DNA of 64,000 bases from Octopus vulgaris (taxonomy: Eukaryota): NCBI GenBank assembly GCA_951406725.2, contig OX597822.1, forward strand, positions 52,762,001-52,826,000. Direction: 5' to 3'. The notes under the pieces are model-generated. The model saw nothing but the letters and a program-made list of their open reading frames with translations, ran no database searches and was not told the origin of the DNA. The translations under genes were made by a program, and so were the position numbers. Shown one piece after another: positions 32,788-43,195 of the stretch. Each line of letters starts with the position of its first letter. Positions within the stretch are counted from its first letter, which is position 1.

Positions 32788-32838
32788 AGCTTCCTGAAGA
32801 TTTCTCTTGAATGAAACAGTTCTAGTCCTGTAGAAGCT
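32788..32838 (+). ncRNA. Canonical type I hammerhead ribozyme
   Basis: Stem I agcttc/gaagct, CTGAAGA, stem II ttc-tctt-gaa, GAAA, stem III acag/ctgt, cleavage triplet GTA; within a 135-bp unit flanked by TA/CA runs. Confidence 0.88.
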
Positions 32839-33012
32839 CCTTCTATATAATAAATTAATTTTACTCTGCTATGTATTGAGTACCTTATTTACTGTGGTTA
32901 ACCCCGAATCAACCCGGGACCTACATATATATATACACACACACACACACACACACACACACACACACACACACACACACACACACACACACACACACAC
33001 ACACACACACAC

Positions 33013-33681
33013 ATATATATATATATATATATGTATATATATATATATATATATGTATATATATATATATATATATATGTATATATATATATATATATAT
33101 ATATATATATATATATATATATATATATATATATATATATATATATATATATATATATATATATATATATATGTATATATATATATATGTATATATATAT
33201 ATATATATATATATATATATATATATATATATATATATATATATATATATATATATATATATATATATATATATATATATATATATATATATATATATAT
33301 ATATATATATATATATATATATATATATATATATATATATATTATATATATATATATATATATATATATATATATATATATATATATATATATATATATA
33401 TATATATATATATATATATATATATATATATATATATATATGTATATATATATATATGTATATATATATATATATATATATATATATATATATATATATA
33501 TATATATATATATATATATATATATATATATATATATATATATATATATATATATATATATATATATATATATATATATATATATATATATATATATATA
33601 TATATATATATATATATATATATATATATATATATATATATATATATATATATATATATATATATATATATATATATATAT
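33013..33681. repeat. Long (TA)n
   Basis: Direct reading. Confidence 0.95.
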
Positions 33682-33920
33682 TAAAAGTCAGAAACTTTTC
33701 AGCACCCCTTCGTGTATATATATATATATATATATTACAAAATTAGAAAATGGAGAAACATACTTAAATCAATAAAACATCAACTATCAGATGATACCCA
33801 ATCAATACTTTATTACACCATTACATATCAGTAAAGGCATTATACAAAATATAAAGTAAATATAAATAGACAAGGAAGTAGAAATATAAAATATAAAATA
33901 TAATATGTAATTATATCATA

Positions 33921-34030
33921 TCTGACAGCTGTTTCGGCAGTAAGGGCAGTCATACCTCATTTAACCTATAAGCCATAAAGGCAGGTATAAATGAGGCATT
34001 AACAAGGATGCCCCACGGCCTCTTCAGAGA
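33921..34030 (-). ncRNA. Type I HHR with an extended stem II
   Basis: tct-CTGAAGA-ggccgtggggca...tgcccttactgcc-GAAAC-AGCT-GTC-aga; inner hairpin cctcattta/taaatgagg. Confidence 0.8.
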
Positions 34031-35821
34031 ATTTAATTCGTTATAATTGTTAAAAAAATTATTTTTCCATATACATATAAATATAAAAATATAAAAATGT
34101 AAAATATAAAAACTTGTGCATAAACTCCATAATGCTACACATATATAATACTCATTGATACAATAATAAAACAAAATACAATAATAAAACAAAATAAAAC
34201 AAAATATATATCAGTGTATATATTAATATTAATAAGCACAGTTATTTTACATATTTAGCTAATAGTTCTAAAAACTAACACATAGGGAGATGTATGCGCA
34301 CTATTTAAATTAAAATCATCCCTATACCTGAAAATAATAAAAAAAAAATAATAAAAAAACCATAGTTCAGTTCATAAAATTATAAACCTATAAAAGTCAA
34401 TATAAATTACTATTAATATTAATAAAAATAATAATAGATACAGTAAAGTTAGCACCAAGTACATCCATTCAAAATCGAAATAACTATGAGTTTAGTTTTT
34501 CTGTCCGCTTGATATTGATTATTCTAGATTACTTCGATTGGCTTGTAGTTTGAAATTTGAATCACAAAAGAAATTTTACGGTTGGTTAGTCAAGAAACGC
34601 AAATACGCACACGCACATCCACAGATCAATCGCACATACATACATAATTATATGTATACACACACACATACACTTATACACATACGCATCCACAAGCAAC
34701 CTCTAGCATAAAGATAAATAAATAGGGGAGCAACTATACTGTCATCTAGTCTATCAAAATTATAACTATGCCTCAAATAACAAAAAAGATCCACTCATAT
34801 ATTTCCATAAAATATTTATTTCAATGATATATATATTTATATATCAATATAACGATGTCGGATGTTATTTCACTATGTACCTTGCGTATTTAACACCGGT
34901 TTTTATCATAGTCAACATAGCGGTTACTAGATTTACCGTAAATTTGTTGTGATTCCATGTATGCTAAGTTATAAAGTATAGATTAATTTTTATATTATAA
35001 ATATATATCTCTTTTTTACTTAATAAATTCTATGCCATTATAAACAAGATTAGGCATTAAATAATAACAACAGGGGGACTCACTAATACAATCGTATATA
35101 AGAAAATCACAGAAGTTAAAAGATTGTAAATACTTAAGTTAAAATGGGATAAAATAAATAAGAAGAATTAATTACGATTACACACATAATATAAGTACAA
35201 ACCAGTATATATGTATTCATATATTATTAAGAAATAAATGATTGATATGTATGTATAAATCTACACTTATATAAGTAAATAAATAAATAAATAAATAATT
35301 AGATGACATGATATGTATGTATAAATCTACACTTAAATAAGTAAATAAATAAATAAATAATTAGATGACTAAGTGCAAAGATAGATACCATAGAGAACCA
35401 ATTCAGATAAATGCATAGGTACAGGTACACCTAATATATAGTAATGCTAATATGCATATATCCACATATACATAAAAGAGTATAAATGTAAATCAATAAC
35501 ATAAAATAAAGTTAAGATATATATTGAAGAAAGTACCAATATAAACTTAGTATACAGGCTAATACTATGAAAGTTTATACCTGTAAATAGTGAGTAAAAA
35601 ATTGGATAGATGGATAATTTAATGTACAGATCCAGAAGACTATAAATATAGACTAAATATATAAGGCTGGTAATATTTATAAAGTCTAATGTTTGTAAAT
35701 GAAAAGGTTTATTAGTAAATAGCATAAGATACAAATTAAGGTGAGTACAAAGAAAGACCAAATATACAATATAAACCTGCCAAATAAACACATACAAAAT
35801 ATATTTATATATATATATATA

Positions 35822-36031
35822 ATGATAGGCTCGTTATTTAAATATCGAACTTATCAAGTGACAAGCATGGGAATGAAAGCCTTCAAAGGTAATAATTATT
35901 ATCAAAATTATAATTTAGGGTATCCAAGAGATACCACCACACTTGAAATAGCAGCCAAAAGTTTAGAGTCAAGTTTTGGCTGCTATTTCAAGCGTGGTGG
36001 TATTTCTTAGATACCCTAAATTATAATTTTA
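35822..36031. mobile_element. Internally deleted copy of the 43293-43665 inverted-repeat cassette
   Basis: Tail 35822-35903 and arms 35904-35960/35972-36031 are homologous to 43293-43665. Confidence 0.75.
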
Positions 36032-40590: not shown

Positions 40591-40609
40591 AAGGCTTGAG
40601 AGAGAGAGA

Positions 40610-41300
40610 GAGAAAGAGTCTAAAAGCACTGCCTTCATTATCATTGACGTCCAGGAACACAAATTACCTTCCGGTCCTGGAAGACCGACCGTATCCCAAA
40701 ATCCAGGCCTTTTCTGAACAATACTGCCACCCTACCCCCATTCCCGGTCGACTAAGAGATACGAAAATCTCAAAGTCATCGAAAATGGGAGCCTGGGCCC
40801 GTGTGTCCGCGATCCTGGTCTCACTGACGGCTATTACATCCAAATTTAACCACCTGAGATCATTGCACAAGCGTCCTTGCTTTCATGACGACCCCCAGGC
40901 AACGTACATTTACACACCCTACTTTAAGACCCGCCATGCTCGCCAGGAAGTAAGGAAAGGAAAAAAAGAGTGTCACTTACCCTCTTGGTGGTGTTTGTGG
41001 TCGAGTGGTTCTCCCACCCTGTCTGTTTTGTTGGGTTCCTCTAGGAACCCCCTTAACAGCAGTCTGCTGGCCGTTACTCTGGGAGATCCAGTGTCATACA
41101 GGAAGCTCCGCTTTATGTTCGTGTAAGTCTCTAGTGTCATTCGCACCATCATCAGGCTCTGCGGTACTCTAAAAGTGTTGGGGCCGCAAATCACCCTCTC
41201 TGTTTCAACATTCTCATTTTGTGCTATGAGGGCCATCAGCTTTTCATTGGCCCTTCTCACTCGCACGGTGTTCCGCTTCTGTGCAGATAGTTGTTGTTGT
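40610..41300 (-). pseudogene. L1/Tx1-like LINE fragment (ORF1 end plus start of the APE endonuclease)
   Basis: NDLRWLNLDVIAVSETRI..FEIFVSLSRPGMGVG fits the APE D-I---ET motif. Confidence 0.6.
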
Positions 41301-41615
41301 TGTAGTAGTGACATTTTTGTTTTTAAGGTTTGTTGTTTTTGATTCTATTGTAGGGGTGTGTGATGGTGTTGGTGATTCTTCTTCTGTCATTCATTTAATG
41401 GTGTATATGTGTGTGTGTGTGTGCACACGCGCACGTGTATATATAAAAATGTACATAAAGTCAGAGAGAGAGAGAGAGAGAGAGAGAGAGAGAGAGAAAG
41501 AGAGAAAGAGAGAGAGAAAGAGAGAGAGAGAAAGAGAGAGAGAGAGAAAGAGAGAGAGAGAGAGAGAGAGAGAAAGAGAGAGAGCGAGAGCGAGCGAGCT
41601 AGACAGATACATATA

Positions 41616-42783
41616 CACAGACATGACAGAAGTAAATAAACACCTCAAAAAAACCCTCGTTTTTTTGTTTATTTTAGCTTGAAAAGGTTTATATTTCTTA
41701 TTAATTGACATTTTTATGTTTCAGGGTCTATATGCGACAGTTTAATCATGCCACGTACAAAAGAAGCCTGTCTGAATTTCAAAGAGGCCTTATTGTGGGC
41801 CAATCTGAAGATAGACTTAGCCAAGTGTAAAATTGCAGAGCGGGGAAGGAATCCACATCATCTCGCCCACGTCAACTAAGTGCTTCCGACAATCCTTCGC
41901 TTTGTTAAGATAAATGTGGAGGATAATCATCGTAGCCTGGCTTCTGACATAGCACAATCATTTGATGTCAGTCCCAGAACAGCTAACAGGTATCTCCACA
42001 AACTTGGCTACTATGGCAGAGCAGCAGGAAGGAAGCTACTTCGGCCAACCAATATTAAGCGGAGAGAAGATAGGGCCACTAGAATTTTGAGACACTGTCA
42101 TATTCCCTGATGAATCCAGATTTGGTGCATTTTCTAACAGTGGTCGAGTGTGGATTTGAAGACTTTATGATCAAGAATTTGATGTGAAAAGATTGCAGCC
42201 AAAAATGAAACATGATAGCTGTTTTGAGATGGCCTGGGGAGAAATTTGGAGCAATGGTCGATCAGAGCTGGTGGAGTGGGAGGTAAGCATAAACTCAGAC
42301 AAATATGTGCCCATATAACAGAAAGGACTTCTTCCAGTCTTCTTCAGTGGTGAATTGATTAAAAAAGACTTTATTTATGGAAGATGGGACTCCTTATCAC
42401 ACGGCTAAAAAGACCCAAGACTGGTTGGAAAAGAAGGGCATTAAAAAACTTCCAAAACAATCCAGTCATCAGATACGAACCCTATTGAACATCTCTGGGG
42501 AATAATGGACAGGACACTTTGTAAAAAGAACAAGAAAGCATCTTCAAAGCTGGATCTTTTGAGATTACTGCATGGATCTTGGAAAGAAATTCCTCGAGAA
42601 AATATTCATCTGATCAGTTGCATGACTAATAGGGTCCTTGCATTAAAAAATTCAAAGGGCATATCTTCTAAATATTAGATATTCACATTATAATGATTAA
42701 TAAATAATCTGAATGTATAATTTCGGATTTAAAATTTTAACGATTATAAGTGTGTCTATTTACTTCTGTCACTCATGTCTGTG
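41616..42783 (+). mobile_element. Tc1-like transposon with decayed transposase
   Basis: TIRs cacagacatga..cagaagtaaata flanked by TA; DESRF, MAWGEIWSNG, HTAKKTQDWL, NPIEHLWG remnants. Confidence 0.88.
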
Positions 42784-42990
42784 TATATGTACTTAAATGT
42801 TTACATACGTACATATGTATAGATATGTACCTGTATACACATGTATGTATGTATGTATGTATGTATGTATGTATGTATATGTATGTATATGTATATATAT
42901 ATATATATATATATATATATATATATATATATATATATATATATATATATATATATATATATATATATATATATATATATATATATATAT

Positions 42991-43195
42991 GTAGGTCCCG
43001 GGTTGATTCGGGGTTAACCACAGTAAATAAGGTACTCAATACATAGCAGAGTAAAATTAATTTATTATATAGAAGGAGCTTCTACAGGACTAGAACTGTT
43101 TCATTCAAGAGAAATCTTCAGAAATCTGCTTCCTGAAGATTTCTCTTGAATGAAACAGTTCTAGTCCTGTAGAAGCTCCTTCTATATAATAAATA
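42991..43195. mobile_element. (TA)n-embedded palindromic cassette with two back-to-back canonical HHRs
   Basis: Minus HHR 43077-43121, plus HHR 43128-43176; 42991-43121 is the reverse complement of 32794-32924; flanked by pure (TA)n on both sides. Confidence 0.88.

Follow-up and report, generated by a model that had tools for sequence, protein, structure and literature searches.

An inverted 5′ copy and an optional tail of 30-40 bp are general features of Penelope-like elements (PLEs; PMC8557442), palindromes occur at their head-to-head junctions (Arkhipova et al. 2013, PMC3846280), and a PLE protein cuts and extends both target strands, the tail lying between two internal start sites for reverse transcription (Frangieh et al. 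2024, PMC11167929). PLE RNA with a dead ribozyme inserts normally (PMC11167929), and both the formation of the inverted repeat and the role of the hammerhead have been put as open questions (PMC8557442, PMC11167929). Close pairs of hammerheads on opposite strands have also been reported (Cervera and de la Pena 2014, PMC4209133). Dealt with here is a stretch of 64,000 nucleotides from Octopus vulgaris (the window; contig OX597822.1, 52,762,001 to 52,826,000 of the forward strand, numbered from its first letter), which holds three copies, termed A, B and C, of a short unit with a predicted type I hammerhead. Judged from its sequence, the unit likely comes from a Hydra-clade Penelope-like retrotransposon, of which it would be the end that bears the hammerhead. 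A and the B/C pair are probably separate insertions, into (TA)n, of a highly repeated element's hammerhead end, likely the 3′ pseudo-long terminal repeat (pLTR) of a Hydra-clade PLE, with B/C having its origin in the use of two primers.

Copy A (32788-32924, plus strand) is the part from the hammerhead to the 3′ end, 137 bp counted to the last non-repeat base. Copy B (42991-43127, minus strand) is identical to it at 135 of 137 positions, both mismatches falling within the first 6 nt, in the 5′ arm of stem I; from C3 at 43121 onward the identity is 131/131 (BLAST E 3e-66). Copy C (43128-43194, plus strand) agrees with A at 67/67 positions, is without the 69-bp tail and ends in (AT)n. Together B and C form a palindrome with perfect 62-bp arms (43060-43121 and 43133-43194) around a spacer of 11 nt. 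A sequence-only reading of this DNA had recorded a minus-strand copy some 10 kb from the first, head-to-head with a tail-less second copy, and an arm/arm/tail architecture; all three copies were re-located and aligned, and the layout is the one it described, B being arm plus tail and C an inverted arm only. BLAST of 32721-32925 against the 64-kb window gave no copy besides these. The 135-bp unit that it had starting at stem I holds as a unit, though not in its start: the microsatellite reaches A only at 32721, so that A begins 66 bp earlier and measures ~203 bp. (TA)n abuts all 4 outer junctions in the window, and all three copies continue through the predicted scissile site. Since AGAAATCT is found twice on the plus strand at the B/C junction, at 43110 and 43120, the six odd bases of B are best read as a slipped re-copy at joining rather than as two point mutations.

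Of the 24 sequencing runs listed, 20 carry 0.82-1.00 of 17 sampled words of the unit; they come from 11 studies under 6 organism labels, and for 2 rows a flag marks a possible source. Contigs placed on the unit number 10,972 in run X1, 1,972 in X2 (a possible source run), 1,166 in X5 and 5 in X10, a run that is only guessed to be RNA and that was not used as evidence of transcription; no RNA run carrying the unit is among the runs listed, and summed contig depth was used neither for copy number nor for ranking parts of the unit. With many contigs in X1, X2 and X5 the unit is multi-locus and not a product of local duplication only. The earlier claim of a young multi-copy hammerhead unit of Penelope-like origin is supported. 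Variable places listed come to six over 204 bases, only one of them inside the motif, at the free core position N7 (62, 57, 19 and 1 contigs in the four runs); polymorphic sites in the arm include 32798 and 32848.

As to the ends of the unit, the results come from the 19 of 99 loose-end rows that were listed. In these, (AT)n lies behind 32855 in 20, 16 and 14 contigs of X1, X2 and X5, and at a second nearby inner end, behind 32859, in 11, 4 and 4; with that recurrence, the end of C is a family-wide second 3′ end (32855), besides the outer one at 32924. Loose ends before 32788, from 25 contigs of X1 and 5 of X5, match the start of the motif in reverse complement (13/14 nt in X1 and 10 nt in X5, compared by eye), which puts an apparent recurrent head-to-head turn on AGCT at 32788-32791, the edge of stem I. 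The B/C junction deviates from this usual turn of the family. The cleavage site is not marked by any loose-end row among those 19.

The copies, their microsatellite flanks, their repetition, the 3′ ends at 32855 and 32924, the recurrent turn at stem I and templates running through the scissile site were observed, and they presumably reflect mobilisation by a Hydra-clade reverse transcriptase (RT)-endonuclease, priming on both strands at outer and inner sites, and joining of complementary DNAs (cDNAs) at the stem I edge. The RT and GIY-YIG endonuclease of an autonomous element would nick (TA)n and reverse transcription would be primed on uncleaved RNA, A being a plain 5′-truncated product. For B/C, both target strands would be primed, one at the outer site to give arm plus tail and the other at the inner site to give the arm only; both cDNAs would end at the stem I edge and be joined there, normally via the self-complementary AGCT, and in B/C after a short slipped duplication. 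A possible but less expected course, within the same PLE origin, is snap-back, in which a single cDNA, on reaching the palindrome at stem I, folds or switches onto itself; back-copying would then go on to the point at which the strand can anneal with the second (TA)n end. Identity of B and C at all 62 shared bases and AT microhomology to the target at the end of C would suit it, and self-priming at junction palindromes has already been proposed for rotifer PLEs (PMC3846280); however, across copies the end of C falls repeatedly at the same one or two positions, which is what a priming site would give, and PLE protein in vitro extends both strands from two internal sites (PMC11167929). Also tentative is the suggestion, to be held with more doubt than belief, that the hammerhead fold itself ends reverse transcription, with two cDNAs from opposite (TA)n strands stopping at the 5′ arm of stem I and joining via AGCT, in which case the ribozyme, cutting or not, would set the pLTR boundary and make the inverted repeat.

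The hammerhead of A has a 6-bp stem I, the core CUGAAGA/GAAA/UA, a 4-bp helix III and an 8-nt loop III centred on CUAG. Its type I core is complete (C3 U4 G5 A6 N7 G8 A9, G12 A13 A14, A15.1-U16.1, H17); the standard 10.1-11.1 pair is absent, stem II having a U10.1-U11.1 mismatch at its base, then 3 pairs and a tetraloop, and GUA at 32830-32832 leads to scission being predicted after 32832. When the 53,591 unmasked bases were dinucleotide-shuffled 100 times, the descriptor of monomer type matched 0.02 times per shuffle and its strict form in 0 of the 100. Rfam hammerhead models gave no match at E<=10 on 32722-32925, Rfam on the B/C palindrome returned sub-threshold microRNA hairpin matches only and no hammerhead, and the folding free energy is no better than that of shuffles (minimum free energy z -0.14). 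Given the U-U, the 3-bp stem II and these results from Rfam and folding, the description of the motif as canonical was an overstatement; the 4-bp stem III that had been claimed is present, closed in A by the 8-nt loop.

On a rival reading, the likeness to a hammerhead is due to chance and B/C is an assembly artefact, a product of local duplication or a DNA transposon akin to a miniature inverted-repeat transposable element; the same Rfam and folding results would be in keeping with this, as would the fact that no second run showed the exact B/C junction. This is scarcely credible, as the arms differ in length and run into microsatellite, runs without a source flag show these ends and this turn again, the strict motif is missing from every shuffle, and the match to published Hydra-clade motifs is close (PMC8557442).

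U-U at the base of stem II occurs naturally and is the best tolerated mismatch (Perreault 2011, PMC3088659), GUA cleavage sites occur in nature (PMC1636495), and the axolotl hammerhead HHR_Amex2, also U-U, was 22% cleaved in 1 h as a monomer and far better as a dimer (PMC7229834). The 8-nt loop III could permit cleavage as a monomer, so that this part of the earlier proposal is possible with the U-U tolerated, but the transcript suggested for it, 32780-32850, is predicted to be misfolded. The constrained active fold has a probability of 0.018 for 32788-32838 and 0.0004 for 32780-32850, values from a nearest-neighbour model run without an active-ribozyme control, which are to be read as ratios between constructs only; it is lowered in the longer RNA owing to an 8-bp hairpin that sequesters the cleavage site, with the drop beginning once the RNA extends past ~32847. 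Stem I is 5 bp long in C and only 3 bp in B, where it is damaged and no longer full, and the active fold of B is at +1.3 kcal/mol. RNA of B/C is predicted as one long duplex of ~-105 kcal/mol. Pairing of the helix III strand with a second copy, through the CUAG loop, is predicted at -12.8 kcal/mol, compared with -1.4 kcal/mol for its hairpin, so a dimer would still be possible. The hammerhead is likely a weak and conditional ribozyme, and insertion likely does not need its cleavage.

The 5′ extension ahead of the motif is present in all four runs and continues upstream; X10 records 9 and 10 cover 32722-32816 with 2 and 5 differences and run on upstream. It is likely the 3′ untranslated region (UTR) or the end of an open reading frame (ORF) of the parent element. 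Only 1 of its 3 frames is open (32721-32789), with a stop at 32787-32789, at the start of stem I, and the variants in the extension (3 listed and 1 from a single contig) all fall at third codon positions of that frame. The peptide is unlike the Hydra ORF ends in the available part of PMC8557442; a coding origin is possible and a UTR origin preferred. The extension has two TATAAA motifs, at 32741 and 32759, and the second, 29 nt ahead of 32788, raises the matter of whether the unit might be a self-standing non-autonomous one of 137 nt, retrozyme-like or a mini-PLE resembling a short interspersed element (SINE), transcribed from TATAAA with its RNA start at 32788. One X10 contig does begin at 32788 directly from microsatellite, and B and C both begin at the stem I edge. 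Such a unit is nonetheless unlikely: TATAAA is frequent in such AT-rich DNA, A holds upstream sequence that extends further, the window lacks head-to-tail tandem arrays of retrozyme type, and just one contig has a joint leading from 32849 back to 32788.

A larger 10-kb structure had also been entertained in the sequence-only reading. If A, B and C were the ends of one 10-kb insertion with captured host DNA, as for a rotifer PLE, their identity at polymorphic sites, 10 kb apart, would be accounted for, and capture between pLTRs is published for a PLE (PMC3846280). However, the published order is inverted, direct, cargo, direct, and here the far copy A is inverted to B; A and B both have the full tail joined to (TA)n and complete 3′ ends that face each other, where published layouts are direct or point outwards; and the interval consists of unrelated old repeats, with RT relics, a Tc1-type/Tc3-type relic and SINE-like repeats shared elsewhere in the window at 77-97% (self-BLAST of the window with microsatellites masked, from which the inverted pairs given below also come). 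Pfam, applied to 34 of the 62 ORFs of the interval (those not dominated by simple repeats), identified RVT_1 relics at 38118-38794 and a Tc3-type transposase relic at 41880-42107, and no GIY-YIG. Two independent insertions are simpler, and the single large insertion is highly improbable.

Several points weigh against separate two-primer insertions of a Hydra-clade PLE end as set out above. Loop III has 8 nt, versus 1-3 nt in 25/25 Hydra families listed (PMC8557442), and the tail is 69 bp, versus 30-40 bp in published PLEs. Two-primer joining and snap-back copying are not separated by the present data. Target-site duplications are uncallable within (TA)n. In the window, the unit has neither an RT nor an endonuclease gene linked to it, and no autonomous partner was identified; Hydra-type peptide motifs had 6 isolated matches there, none clustered, with no Hydra-like ORF remnant; and among 39 candidates for the extension peptide, in what was a weak search, none reached E<=10. 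Evidence for inversion in the family is a loose-end consensus with an agreement of only 0.66-0.68, no formal strand-change joint was listed, and loose ends of X2 at 32786 (12 contigs) are not cleanly readable as an inverted arm.

Table 1. Parts of the three copies and their flanks, in window coordinates.
Feature	Coordinates	Strand	Remark
(TA)n/(TG)n microsatellite, left flank of A	32489..32721	.	
5′ extension of A, family sequence upstream of hammerhead	32722..32787	+	contigs in all four runs
Short self-complementary stretch CTAG/AGCT at stem I 5′ edge	32786..32791	.	recurrent head-to-head turning point (apparent)
Predicted type I hammerhead motif of A	32788..32838	+	scission predicted after 32832
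Predicted 8-bp hairpin covering cleavage site and stem I 3′ arm	32831..32849	+	fold prediction
Remainder of arm to inner 3′ end, where C stops	32839..32855	+	
69-bp tail to outer 3′ end	32856..32924	+	in A and B, not in C
(TA)n/(CA)n microsatellite, right flank of A	32925..33681	.	
(TATG)n/(TA)n microsatellite joined to B 3′ end	42844..42990	.	
Copy B from C3: hammerhead, arm, tail	42991..43121	-	131/131 vs A
Junction insert in place of B's stem I 5′ arm	43122..43127	-	repeats six bases from inside motif
Copy C, tail-less inverted arm, 5-bp stem I	43128..43194	+	67/67 vs A
(AT)n microsatellite joined to end of C	43195..43293	.	

Other parts of the window deserve mention. There are ~16 local inverted pairs in its 64 kb with microsatellites masked, a high density of duplex-forming DNA. 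At 2221-2591, (TA)n tracts enclose an arm/arm/tail insertion; its minus arm carries a hammerhead (C3 at 2327) of dimer type, helix III being an 8-nt perfect palindrome. A hammerhead-like palindromic insertion at 3673-3977 has a core starting with U3 at 3760 (minus strand), and another palindromic insertion, at 46139-46868, has an intact-looking motif at 46642 (plus strand) and 234-bp arms that are 98.7% identical; the turning points of these two are not at stem I. Right beside the microsatellite of A, 33915-34040 (minus strand) is hammerhead-like and may represent a related family, with C3 near 34027, a helix III formed by the palindrome ACAGCUGU, and a stem II that is very long. Minimal hammerheads of Penelope/Neptune type, in which a base bulges out ahead of stem II and a true helix III is lacking, are at 31081 (plus strand) and 17500 (minus strand). 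Arm/arm/tail palindromes at 35824-36030 and 43296-43664 are related (85% alike), the latter starting directly after the (TA)n tract behind C. A short stretch at 40640-41350, beside an antisense frame, has no Pfam match; its PGRPTVS peptide resembles an N-terminal motif of RTs. Further off are a tandem satellite of ~28 units of 105 bp (8378-11515) and an uninterrupted DUF229 (PF02995) frame of 660 codons (57312-59294, minus strand), the protein being 72% identical to one of Argonauta hians, with one match at 91% and all others at <=54%, which assigns the window to an octopod. A metagenome scan with a 26-mer of the unit gave 0 matches, as did viral contigs; the sole metagenome match of a 20-mer (22 nt) was judged to be chance and lay inside a contig of recombination genes which, from their translation, we take to be phage-like.

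Two parts of the unit most deserve attention, its long loop III and the stem I turn. At 8 nt, loop III makes for a fair test of monomer cutting by a metazoan PLE hammerhead, and the unit is a useful substrate for how inverted Penelope insertions form: with a short, young and abundant family that has two fixed 3′ ends, a fixed turn and arm polymorphisms, one octopod assembly could separate the two-primer from the snap-back course. Should the hammerhead fold indeed be what stops reverse transcription at stem I, a minimal and very abundant family of octopods whose hammerhead is competent as a monomer would offer the cleanest record of such joining in nature. In octopus the share of near-perfect duplex-forming loci, like that of hyper-editing, is exceptionally high (Porath et al. 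2017, PMC5625713); the repeat-level analysis of that study did not include octopus. Candidate substrates for hyper-editing are palindromes of the B/C kind, and if the stop at stem I is real, duplex-forming palindromes could be a main source of the exceptional A-to-I hyper-editing of octopus.

Comparison with described systems is closest for the Hydra clade, for which File S2 of Craig et al. 2021 (PMC8557442) lists hammerheads of 25 PLE families. Members such as Hydra-1_aJap, Hydra-1_aMil and Penelope-9_HM have a type I hammerhead near the 3′ end of the form CUGA(A/U)GA-U...U-GAA with a helix III of 3-4 bp. As in the octopus unit, U-U is at the base of stem II in 14/25 families (our own count) and helix III is ACAG/CUGU in 4/25; Penelope-9_HM shares the U-U, the 3 pairs and the tetraloop. 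All families listed but one prefer (TA)n, in which the octopus copies likewise lie, and for Penelope-13_HM an inverted 5′ copy is noted, like that in B/C. Hydra-1_Obim, from Octopus, carries a hammerhead motif different from the present one, and four short motifs of the unit are absent from the available part of the PMC8557442 supplement, where line breaks could hide a match. Among motif features set against the Hydra clade, only the 8-nt loop III is unusual.

Other hammerhead-bearing sequences are alike in part. Those found scattered, solo and in close opposite-strand pairs (PMC4209133), resemble the octopus copies in layout, but their helix II is long, with G10.1-C11.1, and they lack helix III; in the octopus unit stem II begins with U-U followed by 3 pairs, and helix III measures 4 bp. 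Non-LTR retrozymes (Cervera and de la Pena 2020, PMC7229834), HHR_Amex2 included, share a non-coding type I hammerhead unit and the U-U base of helix II; however, retrozymes are head-to-tail tandem arrays giving circular RNA, an arrangement taken as defining them in a 2026 retrozyme preprint, whereas the octopus copies are solo or head-to-head. The available literature on octopus hammerheads, Penelope and mechanism, which is that outside Repbase, Dfam and most subscription papers, describes neither the family nor any turn linked with stem I; the unit may already be catalogued in Repbase or Dfam. Features of PLEs that it does have are a hammerhead-bearing terminal repeat, an inverted head-to-head copy and a one-arm tail, in a dispersed multi-copy family with 5′ truncation. 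Insertions with inverted pLTRs (PMC3846280, PMC11167929) likewise have head-to-head arms, a palindrome at the junction, a tail on one arm, two 3′ ends and an AT-rich target, the octopus arms differing in having no element body between them and in turning on the edge of hammerhead stem I. The mirror-image layout of B/C is a known PLE footprint and not a new system, its architecture and ribozyme type being already in print.

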